64,000 nt of DNA from Lachnospiraceae bacterium (GTDB lineage: Bacteria > Bacillota > Clostridia > Lachnospirales > Lachnospiraceae). Shown here piece after piece: positions 1,716 through 48,931 of the stretch. Position 1 is the stretch's first letter, and every line of letters starts with the position of its first letter. The stretch is from assembly GCA_029338735.1 (NCBI GenBank), contig JAQYAY010000038.1, positions 3,669-67,668 on the forward strand. Direction: 5' to 3'. Position numbers and translations under genes: made by a program. A model generated the notes under the pieces. It was not told the origin of the DNA and made no database searches. It was given only the letters and a program-made list of their open reading frames with translations.

Positions 1716-3446
1716 TTAAATATCGTCACCCTCGATGGTCGCTACTTTGAGCATCTCATCGATGGATGTAATCCCCTGAAGTACATACCCTTCTGCATTG
1801 TCACGGATGGTGCGCAGGCCTTCTTTTCTGGCCTCATTCTCTAGCTCATCTGTTCCGAGTCCCTTGGACACTATCCTCTTGAGCTTCGCTGTCATCTCCA
1901 TAACCTCATATATACCGATTCTGCCATAGTATCCGGTATTGCCGCATTTCGGGCAGCCGCCACGATGCGGTACGCAGATCTTTGGCGGATTCTTAGGATC
2001 CCTGTGCAGAAGCCTGCACTCTGTATCTGTGGCCAGTCTCGTCTCCTTGCAGCTCGGGCACAGACGGCGTACGAGTCGCTGGGCAATGATACCTGTCACT
2101 GAATCTGCGATCAGGTATGGCTCGATGCCCATATCCTCTAGTCGGGTAACTGTAGCTGCTGAACTGTTCGTATGAATGGTGCTGACTACCAGATGTCCTG
2201 TGATAGATGCCTGGACGGCAATCTGGGCTGTCTCTGAGTCTCGGATCTCTCCTACCATTATGATATCAGGATCCTGACGCAGGAATGAACGAAGTGCCGA
2301 TGCAAAAGTGAGCCCGGCCTTCGTATTCACCTGTACCTGGTTGATCCCTGGTACATTGGCCTCTACAGGGTCCTCAACTGTCAGTATATTGACCTCCGGA
2401 GTATTGAGCTCTGAAAGTGCAGTATAGAGTGTTGTTGACTTTCCTGATCCTGTAGGTCCTGTGACAAGGATGATGCCATTAGGATGCTTTAATATCCTGT
2501 CAAACTTTTCCATCTCATATGGCTGGATTCCGAGATCTGACTTGGCTCTCGTGAGCGCATTGGCTCTTGTGAGTCGCATAACGGTCTTCTCACCATAGAC
2601 GGTAGGAAGAACCTCGACACGGATATCATACTCTATATCGTCGACAACGGCTGTCATTCGTCCTGACTGCGGTTTGCGCTTCTCTGCTATATCGAGTCCT
2701 GATACAATTTTGATACGGGTGGAAAGTGCTGGAAGAATACTGATGTCATACATCATCTTCTCTACAAGGACACCATCGATCCTGAAACGGATCCTGACCT
2801 GTCTCTCAAGAGCATCTATATGGATATCTGATGCTCTCGAACGCACAGCCTGCTCTACAATTGAGCGGAGCAGCTGGACAATAGGAGCATTTGCGAGCTC
2901 TGTCTCAGTCCCCTGCTGCGCCTCCTCCTCTGCACGCATTCTCTCCTTATGCTGCTGTGTGAACTTCTGCGCAGCACTCATGGCCTCTTCCGAGCCATAA
3001 TATCTGTCGAGAATTGCCTGGATATCCTGCTGGGTCGCTATCAGCGGCTCGATCCTGCATCCTGTGACTATCTCGATATCCTCAATTGCCTCGATATCGA
3101 GAGGATCTGCCATCGCGAGAAAAACAGCCTGCGGATCGTTCGGATCATATCCAATTGGAAGAACGGAATGCTTTCGTAAAACCTTGCCTGAGACGAGCTT
3201 CTGCATATCATCGGAGAGTGCGAAACCGTTCAGGTCTACTATCTGATAACCCAGCTGGCTGGCAAGGGCCTTCGCTATTGCCTTGTCGTCGACATATCCC
3301 AGCTCTTTCAGGCAGTCACCCAGACGCTTCTGACGTCCCTCCTGCCTCTCTTTTTTTGAATAATCCAGCGCTGCCTTGAGCTGGTCTTCCGTGATCACCC
3401 CTGCCTTCAGCAGGAGATCACCAATTTTCAATCTCTGTCTTGGCAT
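1716..3446 (-). CDS. pilB: Type IV pilus assembly ATPase PilB/GspE family
   Basis: 576 aa. The N-terminal T2SSE_N/MshEN-like helices are KIGDLLLKAGVITEDQLKAAL and RLGDCLKELGYVDDKAIAKALASQ. Walker A is GPTGSGKST. A tetracysteine Zn motif (CPSC...CPKC) is present. Confidence 0.85.
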   Translation of the reverse strand: MPRQRLKIGDLLLKAGVITEDQLKAALDYSKKERQEGRQKRLGDCLKELGYVDDKAIAKALASQLGYQIVDLNGFALSDDMQKLVSGKVLRKHSVLPIGYDPNDPQAVFLAMADPLDIEAIEDIEIVTGCRIEPLIATQQDIQAILDRYYGSEEAMSAAQKFTQQHKERMRAEEEAQQGTETELANAPIVQLLRSIVEQAVRSRASDIHIDALERQVRIRFRIDGVLVEKMMYDISILPALSTRIKIVSGLDIAEKRKPQSGRMTAVVDDIEYDIRVEVLPTVYGEKTVMRLTRANALTRAKSDLGIQPYEMEKFDRILKHPNGIILVTGPTGSGKSTTLYTALSELNTPEVNILTVEDPVEANVPGINQVQVNTKAGLTFASALRSFLRQDPDIIMVGEIRDSETAQIAVQASITGHLVVSTIHTNSSAATVTRLEDMGIEPYLIADSVTGIIAQRLVRRLCPSCKETRLATDTECRLLHRDPKNPPKICVPHRGGCPKCGNTGYYGRIGIYEVMEMTAKLKRIVSKGLGTDELENEARKEGLRTIRDNAEGYVLQGITSIDEMLKVATIEGDDI

Positions 3447-3533
3447 TAACTGCGAATCCCTTTACTTCTATAGCCCAAAAATAAACTTTTCATAAAAAAA
3501 TTATAGTCTATTTCACTTTTTCGTGCAACTCTT

Positions 3534-22231: not shown

Positions 22232-22249
22232 CTGATTCCTTTCTTTAAT

Positions 22250-22319
22250 GAAGTTATAAGTTCTTAGTTCCAGGCTTTTTACTCTGAACTTGGAACTTGT
22301 AACTTTAAACTTATTACTT
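22250..22319. repeat. Inverted arrays of 7-nt units (AAGTTNN / NNAACTT) between purM and purE
   Basis: The left array is aagttat aagttct tagttcc (22251-22271). The right array is tgaactt ggaactt gtaactt taaactt attactt (22285-22319). The arms are mutually complementary in several registers. Confidence 0.7.
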
Positions 22320-22826
22320 AGAACTTAAATACTCCTTATAGCCTACTTCTTTAAGCTTTGCATCCTTTGCCTTAACATCCTCTTTCAGATCATTCACATA
22401 TGCCTTGAGTCTTTTCAGCAGTTCAGGATCCGATACTGCAAGGATCTTTGCTGCGAGGATTCCTGCATTTGCTGCTCCATTGATAGCAACTGTTGCCACA
22501 GGAATTCCTGTAGGCATCTGAACGATTGAATAGAGTGAATCAACTCCTCCGAGATCTGATGTCTTCATCGGAATTCCGATAACAGGCATTGGGAAAAGTG
22601 CTGCACACATTCCCGGAAGATGAGCTGCTTTTCCGGCTCCTGCGATGATTACCTTGATTCCTCTCTCCTCTGCAGTCTTTGCATATTCGAAGAACTCGTC
22701 CGGCTCTCTGTGAGCACTGATCACATTCATCTCATATGTGATACCGAGCTGATCAAGGATATCAGCTGCCTTTGCCATGATAGGAAGATCTGAATCGCTT
22801 CCCATAACTATTGAAACCTGTGCCAT
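22314..22826 (-). CDS. purE: N5-carboxyaminoimidazole ribonucleotide mutase
   Basis: 170 aa. [18 protein letters not shown] and AGKAAHLPG are present. Confidence 0.95.
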
Positions 22827-41922: not shown

Positions 41923-42981
41923 TTAAGCTTCTCCTTCCTTAGCCTTCTGAGCCTTGATAGCCTCAGTAAGAAGAGGAACGATCTTATTCAGATCTCCTAC
42001 CAGACCATAGTCAGCTACGTCGAAGATAGGTGCTCCCTCGTCCTTATTGATGGCGATGATCACATCTGACTCCTCCATACCTGCTACGTGCTGGATGGCA
42101 CCTGAGATACCGATTGCGAAATAGATATTCGGACGAACGGTCTTTCCTGTCTGACCAACCTGGAGATCCTTTGGCTTCCAGCCATTATCAACAACGGCAC
42201 GTGAGCATGATACCATAGCTCCCTTACCGAGTGCGTCTGCAAGGTCATCAAGAAGCTTGAAGTTCTCTGCTGAGCCGACTCCACGTCCACCAGATACAAG
42301 GATCTTGGCGTCCATGATGTTAGCAACCTTTGCTACGTCCTTTACTACCTTCTCGATAGTTACAGACTTGTTGTTCTCGGAGATCTGTATGTCAGCCTTG
42401 ATGACTTCTGGCTTTCTGCCAGCTACTGGCTCGAGCTTCTGCATAACTCCTGGACGAACTGTAGCCATCTGAGGACGGTTATTCGGGCAGGCGATGGTAG
42501 CAATTGTATTACCACCGAATGCAGGACGTGTCATGAGCAGCTGATTGTGCTTCTGCTCTACTCCCGGCTTAGCCTCAAGCGGGAAGTCTCCGATATCGAG
42601 CTTGGTGCAGTCTGCGGTAAGACCTGTAGCTACACGAGCTGATACTGTAGGTCCAAGGTCACGTCCGATTGCTGTAGCGCCTACAAGCATGATCTCAGGC
42701 TTATACTCATTGATAACACCTGCAAGTGCCTGTGCATACTGCTCTGTACGATATGTCTCGAGGAGAGGATCATCTACGATGATGACACGGTCAGCACCAT
42801 ACTCACCAAGTCTGTCAGCGAGACCCTCAACCTTTGATCCGATAAGGACTGCAGTTACCTGCTCTCCTAATGTGTCTGCTAATTCTTTTCCTTTACCAAT
42901 AAGCTCAAGAGAGATAGAAGAAAGCTCTCCGTCTACCTGCTGAGCATAGGTAAATACTCCTTTATAATCTTCTAAAGCCAT
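41923..42981 (-). CDS. etfA: Electron transfer flavoprotein alpha subunit
   Basis: 352 aa. The C-terminal FAD-binding region includes PNIYFAIGISGAIQH. Confidence 0.95.
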   Translation of the reverse strand: MALEDYKGVFTYAQQVDGELSSISLELIGKGKELADTLGEQVTAVLIGSKVEGLADRLGEYGADRVIIVDDPLLETYRTEQYAQALAGVINEYKPEIMLVGATAIGRDLGPTVSARVATGLTADCTKLDIGDFPLEAKPGVEQKHNQLLMTRPAFGGNTIATIACPNNRPQMATVRPGVMQKLEPVAGRKPEVIKADIQISENNKSVTIEKVVKDVAKVANIMDAKILVSGGRGVGSAENFKLLDDLADALGKGAMVSCSRAVVDNGWKPKDLQVGQTGKTVRPNIYFAIGISGAIQHVAGMEESDVIIAINKDEGAPIFDVADYGLVGDLNKIVPLLTEAIKAQKAKEGEA

Positions 42982-43016: not shown

Positions 43017-43820
43017 TTAAATGAGGTGCTTCTCATTGAGCTTGCCCATGATGTAATCAACAGATTCCTGTGGGTCAAGAGTAACCTTTTCTCCAGCTCC
43101 CTTACGAACCTTATCAGAAGCCTTGGCAATCTTCGTAGGTGAACCCTTGAGTCCGAGATCCTTGTCATCAACATCCTTAAGGTCCTTACGGCCCCATACG
43201 GTAATCCTCTCGTCCTTCTGGTCGATTGCATCAAAGATTCCGCCCGGTGTCATGTACATTGGCTCCTTGCTAAGCTCTGCAAGAGCAGTGATAAGGCATG
43301 GCATCTGAGCCTTCAGGATATGATATCTGTCATCATACTGTCTCTTTACTTCAACAGTCTTTGCAGCCTCATCTACCTTGATATCCTCTGCATAAGAGAT
43401 AACAGGGATTCCGAGATGCTCTGCGATCTGTGGTCCGACCTGTGCTGTATCACCATCGATAGCCTGACGTCCTGTGATGATCAGGTCATAATCGATATTT
43501 CTGAGTGCTCCTGCGATAGTGGTCGAAGTAGCCCAGGTATCAGCACCACCGAGTACACGGTCAGTAACGAGGATACCATCATCAGCTCCCATAGCCATAG
43601 CCTCGAGCAGAACGTCCTCTGCCTTTGGAAGACCCATTGTAAGAACTGTGACAGTTGTGCCTGGATGTGCTTCCTTTATACGAAGTGCAGCCTCAAGACC
43701 AGCCTTGTCATCAGGGTTCATGATCGTAAGCATTGCTGCACGGTTAAGGGTTCCGTCCGGGTTGAATACTACGCCACCCTTGGTATCCGGAACCTGTTTA
43801 ATACATACTACAATTTTCAT
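43017..43820 (-). CDS. etfB: Electron transfer flavoprotein beta subunit
   Basis: 267 aa. MKIVVCIKQVPD is present. Confidence 0.95.
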   Translation of the reverse strand: MKIVVCIKQVPDTKGGVVFNPDGTLNRAAMLTIMNPDDKAGLEAALRIKEAHPGTTVTVLTMGLPKAEDVLLEAMAMGADDGILVTDRVLGGADTWATSTTIAGALRNIDYDLIITGRQAIDGDTAQVGPQIAEHLGIPVISYAEDIKVDEAAKTVEVKRQYDDRYHILKAQMPCLITALAELSKEPMYMTPGGIFDAIDQKDERITVWGRKDLKDVDDKDLGLKGSPTKIAKASDKVRKGAGEKVTLDPQESVDYIMGKLNEKHLI

Positions 43821-43843
43821 GTATCGTTTGCTCCTTTATTTGA

Positions 43844-43966
43844 TAGTTCTTAGTTATTAGTTCTAAGTTATTAGTTATTAGTTCTAAGTTATGAGTTTAT
43901 ATCATCAGAATACTTACTTTGAACTCAGAACTTTGAACTCAGAACTTTGAACTTTGAACTTACTTA
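43844..43966. repeat. Inverted arrays of 7-nt units between etfB and bcd
   Basis: The left array has 8 units of (t/a/g)agtt(c/a/t)(t/a) at 43844-43899. The loop is about 18 nt. The right array has 6-7 units (tttgaac/tcagaac) at 43918-43966, running into the bcd stop. Confidence 0.75.
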
Positions 43967-45120
43967 AGTAAGTTTCCTGAAATAACCATTCTCTGAACTT
44001 CTGATGTACCTTCGTAGATCTCTGTGATCTTGGCATCACGCATCATACGCTCTACATCGTACTCACGTGTATATCCATAACCACCGTGAAGCTGTACAGC
44101 CTTTGTAGTAACCGCCATTGCTGCTTCTGCTGCGAAAAGCTTTGCCTCTGCTGCCTCTACTGAGAATCTAGGCTTGTTCTTCTTTGCCTCTGCTGCTGCA
44201 TATACAAGGTACTGAGCTGCCTGCATGCGTGTAGCCATATCAGCGAGCTGGAACTGGGTATTCTGGAATGCTCCGATAGTGCGTCCGAACTGCTTTCTCT
44301 CCTTAACGAACTCAACAGTACGGTCTATAGCGCCCTCGCCAAGTCCAAGAGCCTGAGCTGCGATTCCGATACGTCCACCATCAAGAGTATGCATTGCTTC
44401 CTGGAAGCCCTTGCCTCTTACGCCGAGAAGGTTCTCAGCCGGGATACGGCAATCCTGGAAAATAAGCTCGTATGTAGATGAAGCACGGATACCCATCTTC
44501 TTCTCCTTGGTTCCGAATGAGAATCCAGGAGTTCCCTTCTCAACGATGAATGCTGAGAAATTCTTCTTTGGACGGCCCTTCTTATCTGTAGTAATATCTG
44601 TTACTGCGATGATGACATAGATATCTGCTTCCTTACCATTGGTGATGAAGCACTTTGATCCGTTGAGTACCCACTCATTTGTCTTCTCATCGAGAACAGC
44701 CTTGGTCTGTGCTCCCTGAGCGTCTGTACCTGCTCCTGGCTCAGTAAGAGCGAAGGCTCCGAGCTTCTCGCCCTTTGCAAGAGGTACAAGGTACTTCTGC
44801 TTCTGCTCTTCTGTACCGTAGTTAAGAATAGGGTCACAGCAGAGTGATGAATGAGCTGAAACGATAACGGCTGTTGTACCACAGACCTTTGCGAGCTCCT
44901 CTACACACATAACGTATGTAAGCGGATCACAGCCCTGTCCGCCGTACTCCTTTGGAATAGCAATTCCCATAAAGCCGTACTTTGCCATTTTCTCAACAGT
45001 TGCTCTCGGGAACTCCTCTGTCTCATCGATTTCCTGTGCGAGCGGCTTTACCTCTTTCTGAGCGAAATCAGCGAAGAGGGAACGAGCCATCTCATGCTTT
45101 TTATCTATAATAAAATCCAT
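43960..45120 (-). CDS. bcd: Butyryl-CoA dehydrogenase (short-chain acyl-CoA dehydrogenase)
   Basis: 386 aa. It has the ACAD signatures and the C-terminal [12 protein letters not shown]. Confidence 0.95.
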
Positions 45121-45141
45121 GGATTAATTTTCCTCCATTAT

Positions 45142-45208
45142 TAGGGGTTAGGAGTCAGGGGCCAGGGATTGGTTTACCAAAAACCCTATCCCCTATATCC
45201 TATCCTCT
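45142..45208. repeat. Inverted arrays of 7-nt units (G-rich/C-rich type) between bcd and hbd
   Basis: The left array is taggggt taggagt caggggc cagggat (45142-45169). The apex is tggtttacca. The right array is aaaccct atcccct atatcct atcctct (45181-45208). Confidence 0.75.
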
Positions 45209-46090
45209 TTACTGCTTGTCAACCGGAACCTTATTCTTGAAGCCCTGTGAATAATCATAGAAGCCTCTTCCACTCTTGACACCGAGATGTCCTGCACGAA
45301 CCATCTTCTTAAGAAGCGGAGCCGGACGATACTTGGAATCTGCTGTCTCTGTATAGAGTACGTTCATGATCGCAAGTACGATATCAAGTCCGATGTAGTC
45401 GCCGAGCTCAAGTGGTCCCATTGGGTGATTGCATCCGAGCTTCATGGCATTATCAACACCCTCGATATCTGCAACACCCTCTGAATATACGAAGATTCCT
45501 TCGTTGATCATCGGGATGAGGATACGGTTTGCAACGAAGCCTGCTGACTCCTGAACACGTACAGGCGTCTTTCCAAGCTTTCTTGCGATCTCCTCAACCT
45601 TCTCTACTGTCTCGTCAGGTGTGTTAGCGCCCTTGATGACCTCGATGAGCTTCATAACAGGTGCCGGGTTGAAAAAGTGCATTCCGATCACAGGAGTCTT
45701 TAAGCCTGCACCGATCTCTGTGATTGAAAGTGATGATGTATTTGATGCGAAAATGCAGTCAGGATTCTTGACGATATTCTCTTCAAGATCTTTGAAGCAA
45801 TTCTTCTTGATGTCCATAACCTCAAGAGCAGCCTCTACTACGAGATCAGGATCTGTAGCGATTGTATTGAGACCTGTCTTGAACTTGCCAACGATAGCGT
45901 CAGCCTTGGCCTGATCCATCTTGCCCTTGCTTACGAGCTTGTCAAGATTCTTCTTTACCTTGCCGAGTCCGCCCTCAGCGAACTCCTCTTTGATGTCGCA
46001 GAGATATACTGTCTCTACTTCATCGCACTGTGCGAATGTCTGGGCAATTCCTGAGCCCATAGTTCCGGCGCCGATACCTGCAACCTTCAT
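45209..46090 (-). CDS. hbd: 3-hydroxybutyryl-CoA dehydrogenase
   Basis: 293 aa. The Rossmann motif is [12 protein letters not shown], with the HFFNPAP motif. Confidence 0.95.
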
Positions 46091-46115
46091 GTGTTTTCCT
46101 CCTAAATGTAAGTAT

Positions 46116-46164
46116 TGTTAGTTAGGGAATAGGAGTCAGGGGGTAGGGGTTAGAGTAGCGAGTA
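46116..46164. repeat. Left arm (G-rich 7-nt units) of the hairpin element enclosing the four-helix-bundle gene
   Basis: The units are tgttagt tagggaa taggagt caggggg taggggt tagagta gcgagta. It is 23/27 identical to the left arm at 45141-45167. It encodes the gene's C-terminal ...NPYPLTPIP. Confidence 0.7.
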
Positions 46165-46514
46165 TTTCCCAGTTTCCGAATAATTGCACCAAGCATTTTA
46201 CCGACTTCATTGCATAATGAAAGTGCCAGATTAACCTGTTCCGCAGAAAGATAGGCAAGCCTAACACAAATTTCCAATTGTGTTTCTAACTCTGCTCTGG
46301 AACCTTGTGCAATTGATAAAAACCTTAAATATTCTCTGGTAGTATTTCTTTCATAGCCTTCTGCTATATTTGAAGGTATTGATACCACTGATCTTCTCAT
46401 CTGATCAGAAAGTGCATATAGTTCTTCTTTTGGAAGAGATTTTACAATATTATAAACTTCTTCCACAAGCATAATGCTCTTCTGCCAGACAATTAAATCC
46501 CTGTAACTATCCAT
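46122..46514 (-). CDS. Four-helix-bundle protein (23S rRNA intervening-sequence protein family)
   Basis: 130 aa. YRDLIVWQKS...LPKEELYALSDQMRRSVVSIPSNIAEGYER...FLSIAQGSRAELETQL matches the family consensus. Confidence 0.85.
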   Translation of the reverse strand: MDSYRDLIVWQKSIMLVEEVYNIVKSLPKEELYALSDQMRRSVVSIPSNIAEGYERNTTREYLRFLSIAQGSRAELETQLEICVRLAYLSAEQVNLALSLCNEVGKMLGAIIRKLGNTRYSNPYPLTPIP

Positions 46515-46547
46515 CCTATCCCCTATATCCTAAACCCTATATCCTAA
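46511..46547. repeat. Right arm (C-rich 7-nt units) of the hairpin element enclosing the four-helix-bundle gene
   Basis: The units are ccatcct atcccct atatcct aaaccct atatcct. cctatcccctatatccta (46515-46532) is identical 18/18 to 45185-45202. The reverse complement matches the left arm 46121-46153 at 23/33 positions. Confidence 0.7.
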
Positions 46548-47735
46548 TCAGTCACGCTCAACGATAGTAGCACATCCCATGCCGCCACCGATACAGAGTG
46601 TTGCAAGACCCTTCTTGGCATCTCTCTTCTCCATCTCGTGAAGAAGTGTAACAAGAATACGGCAGCCTGAAGCTCCTACTGGATGTCCAAGAGCGATTGC
46701 TCCACCGTTTACATTGACCTTGCTCATATCGAACTTGAGCTCCTTGGCTACTGCAACTGACTGAGCTGCAAATGCCTCGTTAGCCTCGATGAGATCCATA
46801 TCATCAACTGAAAGGCCTGTTCTCTTCATAACGTTCTTAACAGCTGCTACAGGGCCAACACCCATGATCTTCGGATCTACGCCGCCCATAGCGCCGCCAA
46901 CGAAGTATGCCATTGGCTTGACACCAAGCTCTTTAGCCTTCTCCTCTGTCATGAGTACGACTGCTGCTGCACCATCATTGATTCCTGATGCGTTTCCGGC
47001 TGTTACTACTCCGCCTTCAACACCTGATGCGCAGCGAAGCTTGGCAAGACCCTCTGCTGTGATTCCTGCACGAGGTCCCTCATCCTTATCGATTACGATA
47101 TCACCCTTCTTGCGGTCATGAATTGTGATAGGTACGATCTCATCCTTAAACTTGCCATCAGCGATAGCCTTCTGACACTTCTGCTGTGAATTAGCTGCGA
47201 ACTCGTCGAGCTCCTCACGAGTGAGCTTCCACTGCTTTGCAACGTTCTCTGCAGTAACCATCATATGATACTGGTTGAATGCATCCCAGAGTGCATCATT
47301 GATCATTGTATCTACAAGTACGCCGTTATTCATACGATATCCGAAACGTGCCTTGTCAAGAGCGAACGGTGCACGTGACATGGACTCTGTACCACCTGCA
47401 ACTACGATATCAGCCTGTCCGGCCATGATCATGTTTGCAGCTTCATTGACGCACTTAAGTCCTGATCCACAGACTGCATTCAGTGTAACTGCTGGTACCT
47501 CAACAGGAAGTCCTGCCTTGATTGATACCTGTCTTGCTACGTTCTGTCCAAGTCCGGCCTGGATAACGCATCCGAACTTAACCTCGTCTACCTGATCTCC
47601 CGGCACATTGGCACGCTTGAGAGCTTCCTTAACAACTGTAGCTCCCATATCTACTGCTGATACGGTAGAGAGCTCTCCGCCCATCTTACCGATTGCTGTA
47701 CGGCATGCTCCTGCCAGAACAATTCTTCCTGCCAT
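46548..47735 (-). CDS. thl: Acetyl-CoA acetyltransferase (thiolase)
   Basis: The track ORF is over-extended. The start [20 protein letters not shown] at 47735 follows AAAAGGAGAC. The thiolase active-site motifs ([16 protein letters not shown] and the CIGGGMG region) are present. Confidence 0.95.
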
Positions 47736-47753
47736 GTCACGTCTCCTTTTCTG

Positions 47754-47765
47754 GCGCTTTCGCGC
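47754..47765 (-). promoter_or_regulatory. GCGC-GAAA-GCGC tetraloop hairpin in the thl 5' UTR
   Basis: The 12-mer gcgcgaaagcgc (minus strand) lies about 19 nt upstream of the thl ATG. It is identical to the 12-mer in the cysE leader (4634-4645). Confidence 0.45.
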
Positions 47766-47827
47766 ACTTTGCTTTCCATGGAAAATGCGGTTTCCTGTTT
47801 CAATTTGTTTCCTGAAAAATACCAAGT

Positions 47828-47845
47828 CTGTTAAAAATTTAACAA
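47828..47845. promoter_or_regulatory. Rex (redox-sensing repressor) operator candidate
   Basis: The minus-strand sequence TTGTTAAATTTTTAACAG matches the Rex consensus TTGTTAANNNNTTAACAA at 13/14 specified positions. It lies between the thl promoter and the start codon. Confidence 0.6.
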
Positions 47846-47888
47846 TCTTTAACAAAAAATATAAGCCGCCGCACCGGCTACGCTTCAT

Positions 47889-47917
47889 ACTTTACCACAT
47901 ACGACGACTCATATCAA
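47889..47917 (-). promoter_or_regulatory. Sigma-70-type promoter of the thl operon
   Basis: On the minus strand: TTGATA (47917-47912), a 17-nt spacer, then TGG-TAAAGT (extended -10, 47894-47889). Confidence 0.55.
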
Positions 47918-47941
47918 GTGATTTTTTGTAAAAAAGAGAAT

Positions 47942-48931
47942 TTATGGATTGCACCTCTTGCACGGGCTGTAACCCTCGCTGATCAGCGTTTTCCTCTTTT
48001 CCTTAACAGTTTTCTTATTGTGATCTGCCATCTGTCTGACTGATGAACATGATGGCTTGTGAAACTTTTTCGTGTTCGTATTCAGCACATAAGTGTGCTT
48101 GCCGCTGTCATTCTGGCGGCTTCTGCTGTTCTGGGTCTTCTGCTTCGTACTCGGAGTAGATCCCGTATACTCAGGTCCCTTGCTCGATCCATCCTTGTAA
48201 TTAATAGTCACTCCTGGCTGGACATTGTAGCAGAAGGCGCAGAACCTCACTCCGCGGCCCTTATCCTCTATACTCTCCGCTTCCATCAGGACTCCGCGGG
48301 CAAGCAGTTCCTTTCCCTTGAAAACAGGAGTAACACGATACAGAACATGATCATCCGGATTGCTATGCAGGTAATCTGCCACCTCGTCCTCAAACGGCAG
48401 CATGCCCTCAATATTCAGGTATCTCGTGCCGGTAATGAGATTCTCTTCATTCGCATTCTCACCGGTGAGCTGATATCCTATCAGATGGCACCTGTTGTAG
48501 AGGTAATTCCCGTCAATTCCGGCATACTTCACCGTGTGCCAGCCACTCGGGCGGATCATCCCGATAGCACCCCTTGCCTTATCAGGCATCAGATCTGTAC
48601 CAATATTCGCAATTGTAGTCGTACATCTGCCACGGCTGTCAAGACTTCCATACTTCTCATATGACCGACTGCTCTTCAGCTGCTCCGATGTGAAATATGG
48701 CTTGTTGTGGTTGACCTTTACATATGCCTTCTTTCCATTCCATTCAGGGACATCTTCGCTATATGAAAAGCCCTTCGGGACTGGGTTGGCTTCTGCGTCA
48801 ACTACTGCATTTGTAATCTGCTGCCCACTCAGGTCAGCTCCCGTGCCTGCTGCTGATGCAATTATCAAAAAAGCGACCAGCAGTCCAGCGGGAACTGCCC
48901 TGATCGCTTTAATAAATCTGTTATTCTTCAT
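47942..48931 (-). CDS. Secreted/anchored DNA/RNA non-specific (DNA-entry type) nuclease with a C-terminal Ada-like Cys motif
   Basis: 329 aa. The N-terminus is a signal/anchor. The nuclease core is LDSRGRC...NRCHLIGYQLTGENANEENLITGTRYLN. The C-terminus is FHKPSCSSV...GYSPCKRCNP. Confidence 0.7.
   Translation of the reverse strand: MKNNRFIKAIRAVPAGLLVAFLIIASAAGTGADLSGQQITNAVVDAEANPVPKGFSYSEDVPEWNGKKAYVKVNHNKPYFTSEQLKSSRSYEKYGSLDSRGRCTTTIANIGTDLMPDKARGAIGMIRPSGWHTVKYAGIDGNYLYNRCHLIGYQLTGENANEENLITGTRYLNIEGMLPFEDEVADYLHSNPDDHVLYRVTPVFKGKELLARGVLMEAESIEDKGRGVRFCAFCYNVQPGVTINYKDGSSKGPEYTGSTPSTKQKTQNSRSRQNDSGKHTYVLNTNTKKFHKPSCSSVRQMADHNKKTVKEKRKTLISEGYSPCKRCNP

Follow-up and report, generated by a model that had tools for sequence, protein, structure and literature searches.

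The 64,000-nt window analysed here, the whole stretch taken from contig JAQYAY010000038.1 of a Lachnospiraceae bacterium, carries a butyrate operon in which a 130-codon gene lies in the spacer between thl (the thiolase gene) and hbd (the 3-hydroxybutyryl-CoA dehydrogenase gene). The product is a four-helix-bundle (4HB) protein of the PF05635/TIGR02436 family, which is Avd-like and goes by the name '23S rRNA IVS protein', and its open reading frame (ORF) is enclosed by two inverted tandem arrays, or arms, of about five degenerate heptanucleotides each. We consider it likely that the gene and its arms constitute a promoterless, one-gene accessory cassette belonging to a widespread class that also has gene-less relatives. 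The class is best explained as one whose members sit just past a stop codon and just ahead of the next ribosome-binding site (RBS) in co-directional operons, and which also forms the protein-coding rRNA intervening sequences; its members are exchanged between lineages and have slippage-prone arrays. That nearly all of the relatives examined are packaged in this manner suggests a type of small insertion element not described before, akin to the inserts with protein-coding genes found in rRNA genes.

Organization of the cassette

The 5' arm (in the mRNA sense) extends from 1 nt past the thl stop codon (46548-46550) into the start codon of the 4HB gene, with a Shine-Dalgarno (SD)-like GGGGA falling within the arm just ahead of the ATG. 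The final 10 codons of the ORF and its stop codon fall within the 3' arm, which ends ~15 nt ahead of the GGAGG of the hbd RBS. The protein has a core of ~119 aa followed by the tail SNPYPLTPIP, which is read-through into the 3' arm. A sequence-only reading of this region had described the ORF as nested between inverted arms at 46121-46153 and 46515-46547, with the end of the ORF and an SD-like motif supplied by the arms, and all of these are found at those positions.

When slid by one base, the arms form 23 Watson-Crick and 2 G-U pairs over 32 positions, so that the 23 of 33 positions given earlier is correct with a 1-nt offset; just 6 of 200,000 random pairs of 33-mers drawn from the window have as many as 21 identities. 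In the minimum-energy RNA structure of a 461-nt stretch the arms pair with the ORF enclosed between them (z=-2.85), with 45 long-range pairs predicted between the flanks of the gene. The cassette and its ORF have a GC content of 33-37%, compared with ~50% in the surrounding sequence.

The four-helix-bundle protein

The protein matches PF05635 (E=4e-41, 139.8 bits, cut-off 33.8), TIGR02436 (E=2e-39, 134.1 bits, cut-off 24) and NF008911 (142.3 bits, cut-off 137), with a weaker similarity to bAvd (PF22296, E=7e-12) and a score of 47.2 bits against NF033474, the Avd equivalog of the diversity-generating retroelements (DGRs), which is under the cut-off of 80. The conserved R-R...S-I-P-S-N-I-A-E-G...R motif and the other residues that are invariant in a family alignment are all present (R40, R41, S45, I46, P47, N49, I50, E52, G53 and R56), and a GxxRxxxSxxxNxxE motif has been noted for the family (PMC3936711). 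The closest solved structures are PDB 2GSC (E=9e-23) and 2RLD (E=4e-9), both of them entries of five chains; the Xanthomonas protein is described as a homopentameric toroid (PMC4990558), and Avd, a homologous four-helix bundle, is a pentamer that binds nucleic acids (PMC10053308). By homology, the cassette protein is probably a nucleic-acid-binding pentameric ring.

A profile search of the protein returned PF05635 and PF22296 only, with no HUH/Y1 (IS200-like) transposase, and profile searches gave no recognisable nuclease or recombinase fold in the ~119-aa core. The gene is under purifying selection, with a ratio of nonsynonymous to synonymous differences per site (pN/pS) of ~0.1 relative to locus L002 and 0.29 relative to L003 (overall ~0.1-0.3; loci used for comparison are designated by L numbers). 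A near-identical gene copy in L001 (3001-3393) has Leu in place of Trp10, a position that is invariant in an alignment of 15 family sequences, and may be a decaying copy. The PF05635/TIGR02436 family is very large, more than 6,400 relatives being returned by one search, and we know of no function for it outside the DGRs.

A common architecture across the gene family

The flanks of 4HB genes were surveyed in 72 loci for which both sides are available, namely 70 metagenome loci encoding proteins with 44-65% identity to the window protein, the window itself and L003; arrays were taken as significant when they scored above the 99th percentile of shuffles. Of these loci, 62 have a tandem array on one side of the gene or both, 36 of them on both. 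The units are of 7 nt in ~80% of arrays, of 8 nt in ~16% and rarely of 6 nt, with a modal number of five units upstream and four downstream. Unit sequences vary from locus to locus, yet the complementarity between the two arms of the same locus has a median score of 31.5, compared with 14 for arms paired across loci. In minimum-energy folds, 15 or more pairs join the 70 nt upstream of the gene to the 100 nt downstream of it in 61 of the 72 loci, and the median number of flank pairs per locus is 30, against 11 after 3' flanks are swapped between loci. Other copies of the family do carry flanking inverted arrays, including those in Cyanobacteriota and Bacteroidota, and the rRNA intervening sequence of Coxiella has heptads ahead of its ORF; the architecture is general across the gene family examined.

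Cyclic alignment of 39 upstream arrays shows that each unit has an A (95%) followed by a G (92%), with a pyrimidine before them in 77% of units and G or T after them in 80%, the rest being nearly free. The resulting consensus is YAGKNNN, whose two best columns hold 1.65 and 1.48 bits, compared with 0.74 and 0.40 in a letter-permutation control. The downstream arrays mirror the upstream ones, with C at 93% and T at 88% per unit, and one AG per unit upstream and one CT downstream are thus nearly invariant. Period-8 arrays obey the same rule. A minority of cassettes depart from heptads, those at L137, L147, L148 and L151-L153 being octamer and those at L159 and L139 hexamer or mixed, with one AG per unit kept. 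Two roles considered for the units were rejected: G-quadruplex formation, because AAGTTCA, CAGTGAA, TAGCGTA and other types cannot form quadruplexes, and the provision of TAG stops in all three frames, because only about half of the units begin with T.

The genes adjoining the 4HB gene are both in its orientation (+,+) in 32 loci and both opposed to it (-,-) in three, and a median of 55 nt separates the 4HB start from the stop codon upstream. This strong sense orientation shows only that expression of the 4HB gene depends on host transcription. The Pro/Tyr/Leu-rich C-terminal tails of many homologues are read-through into the CT array, and the number of units differs among strains with identical protein. 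At L097 the flanks form a plain inverted repeat of 22 nt instead of a tandem array, and L096, L101 and Gemmatirosa (L185) have same-strand arrays on both sides. L182 (240-330) and L173 (2410-2500) encode an identical 4HB protein, and in L182 the upstream heptad array is swapped for unrelated sequence; the final 15 nt ahead of the ATG and the entire downstream side are retained, and the rearrangement breakpoint is therefore at the inner edge of the 5' array.

AG/CT-armed 4HB cassettes are also present in named records of Anabaena, Picosynechococcus, Stanieria, Nostoc and Riemerella (Bacteroidota), and two of these lie within cas or cmr gene clusters (Table 1). Genes denoted 23S_rRNA_IVP have been listed as CRISPR-associated (PMC3936711, PMC10910872), and such listings may reflect the insertion of cassettes into operon spacers.

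Gene-less heptad hairpins

A period-based scan of the window finds four period-7 arrays (46515-46546, 45141-45167, 43837-43961 and 22281-22327); a GG-based pattern gives two sites, and an exact-seed inverted-repeat search misses the cassette arms, which are imperfect. In total, the window contains one filled heptad element and three gene-less ones, hairpins A, B1 and B2 (Table 1). Hairpin A has its 5' arm at 45207-45184, a loop at 45183-45169 and its 3' arm at 45168-45141, and folds in prediction. Its likeness to the cassette, noted in the sequence-only reading, holds up well: the G-rich arms match at 25 of 30 positions, and the identical 18-mer (45185-45202 = 46515-46532) is exact, with 0.1 matches expected at up to three mismatches. 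The list of hairpins given there was right in placing one at hbd-bcd and was incomplete, two more being present at 43837-43961 and ~22249-22327. Hairpin B1 has a predicted fold of -33 kcal/mol (z=-4.3, with 0 of 200 shuffles as good) and B2 one with z=-2.1. With heptad elements at thl-hbd, hbd-bcd and bcd-etfB, three consecutive spacers of the butyrate operon are therefore occupied, one with a gene and two without, and by two unit types.

The three gene-less hairpins are best explained as cargo-free members of the repeat class of the cassette. The two adjacent elements had earlier been compared as filled and empty sites; the hairpin without a gene is preferably taken as a copy of the element lacking cargo, and not as a vacant target site. 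Gene-less hairpins near other cassettes share the unit type of the cassette in about half of the cases (window, L135, L138, L145 and L155), and differ from it in L101, L112, L133, L136 and L137; a gene together with dispersed gene-less doublets of the repeat is also seen in L101, L138 and L155. A non-coding segment of L101 (3300-4351) contains at least four GAAGAGT-type heptad hairpins whose loops hold a small GC-rich hairpin (GGCAGC-TACG-CTGCC), and adjoins a 4HB cassette with a different arm type (GAGATTT).

For the reverse comparison, 238 IMG/VR loci (2.0 Mb) were chosen solely for TAGGG-type or YAGTG-type arrays; some are from giant-virus bins, and telomere-like TTTAGGG repeats could contaminate the sample. 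These loci contain 1040 period-7 arrays and many gene-less hairpins. Adjacent complementary arrays separated by a loop of at most 60 nt are AG-first in 118 instances and CT-first in three, and pairing alone cannot explain this fixed polarity. Nearly every 4HB gene examined is wrapped in arrays, yet most arrays are gene-less. In L202 (1906-3601) and L226 (7355-8381), both from IMG/VR, there are AG-less heptad hairpins with the pyrimidine-rich arm first (CCGTTTA ... CGGAAAA), and heptad hairpins overall are therefore more diverse than the AG-first class around 4HB genes.

Comparison of sister genomes

The host belongs to a lineage of rumen Lachnospiraceae, Candidatus Weimeria, and the hbd protein of the window is 97-99% identical to that of Candidatus Weimeria (L003-L005) and of RUG096 (L033). 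The contents of the thl-hbd and hbd-bcd spacers vary among these relatives (Table 1), and the distribution of hairpin types at hbd-bcd conflicts with the relatedness of the flanks, whose pS from the window is 0.03-0.08 for L033, 0.12-0.18 for L002 and 0.26-0.40 for L001. Between the window and L001 the cassette has a pS of 0.013, twenty to thirty times below that of thl or hbd. The gene is not ancestral at this position: in addition to this disparity in pS and its foreign GC content, it is missing in Weimeria L004-L007 and another 4HB gene is present in L003. The earlier proposal of a small insertion-prone cassette with filled and gene-less forms finds support in its presence and absence among sister genomes, in its low GC content and in the family-wide arms, and the comparison supports the cassette as a probable accessory insertion in the thl-hbd spacer.

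A GC-rich repeat of ~120-150 nt (CCGAAAGC...GAGATGAGA.CGAGCC...GAAGAACTTCC) occurs in the thl-hbd and hbd-bcd spacers of sister Weimeria, sometimes in two copies, and has no Rfam match. Both spacers look like hot spots for small elements of several kinds.

Operon context

The minus-strand order of the butyrate operon is thl, the 130-aa ORF, hbd, bcd, etfB and etfA, and the genes within ~4 kb of the cassette are these five together with an NS_2 nuclease gene, a small ORF and an Rrf2 regulator gene. When the heptad elements within 43700-48100 were examined, the sole promoter-like site was the one upstream of thl, and no terminator-like site (GC-rich stem plus T run) was found at any of the elements. 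A covariance-model scan of the region against Rfam gave chance-level matches only (E>=0.2), far under the gathering scores, and the same scan of the sister loci likewise yielded no meaningful match. No part of the region matches rRNA, and the cassette occupies the spacer from the thl stop codon to the hbd RBS rather than an rRNA helix.

Immediately after the promoter-like site at 47917-47889 comes a terminator-like stem plus T run at 47879-47864 (minus strand), and this pair at 47864-47917 could be a leader or attenuator of the butyrate operon. The mechanical thl ORF extends to 47888 and reads through the terminator-like stem, and homologues begin MAGRIVLAG.

Table 1. Positions of the cassette, of gene-less hairpins and neighbouring genes in the window, and of related features in other loci
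Feature	Position	Strand	Remarks
5' arm (mRNA sense)	46515-46547	minus	five heptads TTAGGAT ATAGGGT TTAGGAT ATAGGGG ATAGG; period-7 array
4HB gene, 130 aa	46122-46514	minus	PF05635/TIGR02436 match
3' arm	46117-46155	minus	five CT-type heptads CTCTAAC CCCTACC CCCTGAC TCCTATT CCCTAAC
Hairpin A	45141-45207	minus	hbd-bcd spacer; TAGGGGA type, as cassette arms
Hairpin B1	43837-43961	minus	bcd-etfB spacer; AAGTTCA/GAGTTCA units; 5' arm overlaps bcd stop codon
Hairpin B2	~22249-22327	minus	between purE and purM (AIRC, AIRS); AAGTTC type; seven 5' units, ~three 3' units
thl	46548-47735	minus	directly upstream of cassette; start 47735 inferred from homologues
hbd	45209-46090	minus	directly downstream of cassette
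bcd	43960-45120	minus	after hbd in butyrate operon
etfB	43017-43820	minus	butyrate operon
etfA	41923-42981	minus	butyrate operon
thl-hbd spacer	window, L001, L002		cassette present
thl-hbd spacer	L033		cassette with two extra 3' units, plus unrelated GC-rich element
thl-hbd spacer	L003		another 4HB gene, of 119 aa and with a GTG start (aa identity 64-69%); arms TNAGAGG and CCTCNNA
thl-hbd spacer	L004, L005		GC-rich element alone
thl-hbd spacer	L006, L007		plain spacers
hbd-bcd spacer	window, L002		TAGGGGA-type hairpin
hbd-bcd spacer	L001, L033		GAGTTC-type hairpin in place of hairpin A
hbd-bcd spacer	L003, L007		no hairpin
GC-rich repeat	L033:1911-2032; L004:2176-2440 and 3383-3520; L005:2193-2310; L006:3383-3520		
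4HB cassette	L183:1495-1863		Anabaena sp. 90 plasmid; cas6-4HB-cas4
4HB cassette	L187:1489-1845		Picosynechococcus plasmid; cmr2-4HB-cmr3

Contrary evidence and proposed mechanism

A number of observations weigh against the reading of an accessory cassette with gene-less relatives, or against particular parts of it. Significant arrays are lacking at 10 of the 72 surveyed loci. The identical proteins P0113 and P0044 each occur in one genomic context across many samples; movement, if any, is therefore infrequent, and these contexts give no sign of recent transposition. High identity between the window and L001 extends from ~46700 to 45550, past both arms; the best account of the spread between lineages is therefore homologous recombination in which the cassette travels with its flanks, rather than demonstrated transposition. 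The available filled and empty alleles differ over the whole spacer, so that neither a junction nor a target-site duplication is definable. Among the 238 IMG/VR loci, AG-first pairs with loops of 251-700 nt number only four, none of which encodes a 4HB protein, and no PF05635 ORF is present in any of these array-selected loci; arrays therefore need no nearby 4HB gene. The variable heptad positions and the protein sequences give a Mantel r of 0.09 (166 of 2000 permutations as high), which therefore offers no support for cognate specificity between protein and repeat. Finally, 50 well-aligned pairs of arms have 54 G-U oppositions and 71 A-C oppositions, and there is therefore no signal favouring selection on a sense RNA stem over selection on DNA.

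The complementarity of the arms is mainly that of one consensus unit present in opposite orientations on the two sides, its variable positions having drifted independently. Since it bears no RNA signature, a DNA-level reading, in which the arms are binding-site arrays pointing inward, fits as well as an RNA stem does.

For the accessory cassette we envisage the following steps, of which co-transcription from the operon promoter is rated the likeliest. In the transcript, the arms would close an imperfect stem of ~25-30 bp that would hide the SD and the AUG, and by analogy this stem is a plausible substrate for RNase III, a suggestion we make tentatively and with less than even confidence. That the 4HB ring binds AG-heptad arrays, with one AG per subunit, is suggested by the invariant AG, the free spacer positions and the modal five units, and we hold it to be close to an even proposition; the protein would bind the arrays flanking its own gene as well as those of the gene-less copies. 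From one Weimeria lineage to another the cassette probably spreads, together with its flanks, by homologous recombination. A bolder generalization, offered as speculation and in our view doubtful, is that PF05635 proteins are the dedicated partners of heptanucleotide repeat hairpins, each a pentameric ring reading one AG per heptad, and that the gene within its own inverted arrays and the many AG-first hairpins without a gene together form a new class of minimal self-propagating element, similar to the REPIN/RAYT system (repetitive extragenic palindromic (REP) doublets forming hairpins, with REP-associated tyrosine transposases) though not HUH-based, that resides in operon spacers, cas operons and rRNA genes.

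Alternative explanations

The heptad hairpins could instead be host intercistronic RNA elements for processing, stability or translational coupling, in which mobility is incidental and the 4HB ring is a TRAP-like RNA-binding regulator encoded inside its own target and so autoregulatory. The hairpins invariably occupy the interval from a stop codon to the next RBS, in co-directional operons, which fits such a regulatory module, as do the one invariant AG per unit with free spacer positions, the upstream arrays of most often five units alongside homologous structures with five chains, the purifying selection that the protein is under, the location of the SD and start codon within the 5' array, and the stability of identical copies at one locus in many samples. 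We nonetheless regard a domesticated module as rather unlikely, given that the close relatives L003, L006 and L007 have no hairpin in the same spacers, that hairpin types are interchangeable at one site, that the GC content of the cassette is foreign, that the same architecture recurs in unrelated operons including cas operons and rRNA genes, and that G-U is not in excess over A-C in the arms.

A minimal transposon acting at the DNA level is also conceivable, and in our judgement distinctly unlikely. The inverted arrays would be its terminal binding sites, comparable to subterminal repeats known from some transposons, the 4HB protein would perform or recruit the breakage and joining, and the gene-less hairpins would be moved in trans. 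Such an element would account for the fixed AG-first polarity, with the motif facing inward from both ends (118 versus 3), and for the lack of an RNA-specific signature in arm complementarity; gene-less copies of the same unit type are found near cassettes (window, L138, L155, L145 and L135) and can be multi-copy (L101 and the IMG/VR loci), and there is a parallel in the RAYT genes flanked by REPs. Against it, a protein of ~119 aa has no recognisable nuclease or recombinase fold, no target-site duplication is definable, the observed spread is explained by homologous recombination, and most arrays have no 4HB gene nearby.

That the gene is a DGR remnant, a leftover Avd accessory gene, is very improbable: the weak bAvd similarity (PF22296, E=7e-12; NF033474, 47 bits) that suggests it falls short of the Avd equivalog cut-off of 80, the neighbours are thl, hbd, bcd, etfB, etfA, the nuclease and Rrf2 genes with no reverse transcriptase or template/variable repeat pair and with the heptad arms as the only repeats, and the compact cassette recurs in dozens of unrelated operons. 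It is scarcely credible that this is an ordinary resident gene with flanks alike by chance or drift, perhaps through slippage-prone simple repeats unlinked to the gene, for although unit number varies among strains and heptanucleotide repeats are common in some bacterial genomes, where polymerase slippage has been proposed (PMC4679880, PMC4692102), the shuffle and cross-locus controls, the AG/CT rule across unrelated unit sequences, the absence from sister genomes and the foreign GC content all speak against it.

Implications

The inverted AG arrays around almost every family member examined and the abundant gene-less hairpins of the same polarity link two puzzles, the function of PF05635 and the nature of the heptad repeats. 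Heptanucleotide repeats of bacteria have been catalogued for decades and, to our knowledge, are unexplained. ORF-bearing rRNA intervening sequences, a known oddity, are here extended to a general class of element with a simple sequence rule; they are recast as one habitat of that element, and, if PF05635 proteins should prove to be partners of the heptad hairpins, as simply the best-known one. For annotation, the odd proline- and tyrosine-rich C-terminal tails of family members are explained as read-through of the repeat arrays.

Comparison with known systems

No general description of the gene-in-heptad-hairpin architecture was found in the limited collection of full-text literature searched. 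Protein-coding 23S rRNA intervening sequences, which carry an 'S23p' ORF, occur in Leptospira, Coxiella, Brucella and Haemophilus, and these are the closest known relatives of the cassette. They share with it a member of the same protein family in the loop of a long stem with inverted flanks and, as proposed for the cassette, co-transcription with the host gene. In Coxiella, GACAGAT heptads, which are of the CAG type, lie directly ahead of the S23p ORF in numbers that vary among strains, and the stem is cut by RNase III at the first repeat, with a putative SD on the part that is cut off (PMC4990558). The cassette differs in that its host is the thl-hbd spacer of an mRNA operon rather than helix 25 or 45 of 23S rRNA, that both of its arms are clear heptad arrays, and that gene-less copies lie nearby; cleavage by RNase III is proposed for it by analogy only.

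The cyanobacterial short tandemly repeated repetitive (STRR) sequences, the GGGAATC/GGGGATT repeats of Xanthomonas and Nostoc and the TAACTGA repeats of Beggiatoaceae are heptanucleotide repeats located intergenically, with a preference for spacers between aligned ORFs and near stop or start codons; convergent inverted pairs number 70-75 per Xanthomonas genome, with ~four units preferred and their function unexplained, and PF05635 genes go unmentioned in these reports (PMC4692102, PMC4679880). They resemble the cassette and the gene-less hairpins in being tandem intergenic units of 7 nt, and TAACTGA is the CT strand of a CAGTTAT-type unit, as in L150 and L161. GGGAATC and GGGGATT differ in having no AG, and fall outside the AG rule of the 4HB arms.

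The Avd genes of DGRs differ from the cassette, which has no reverse transcriptase or template/variable repeats nearby and a score below the Avd equivalog cut-off. TRAP is a ring-shaped oligomer that reads one short (G/U)AG motif per subunit with free spacers between the motifs, and the cassette arms, with an invariant AG in each heptad and a modal count of five, recall it as a mechanistic analogy only; the fold is unrelated, and binding by the 4HB protein is a supposition on our part.

Closest in logic is the REPIN/RAYT system, which consists of a gene flanked by inverted short repeats, with the repeat also dispersed far more often as gene-less hairpin-forming doublets. The cassette likewise has a single gene between inverted repeats together with dispersed gene-less hairpins. 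Its gene encodes a four-helix bundle with no known catalytic activity rather than an HUH/Y1 transposase, and its arms are tandem heptads rather than a single REP of 20-40 nt. With these differences, the gene-less hairpins compare to the cassette as REPINs do to a RAYT gene, or as MITEs, miniature transposable elements with inverted repeats, do to a transposon.

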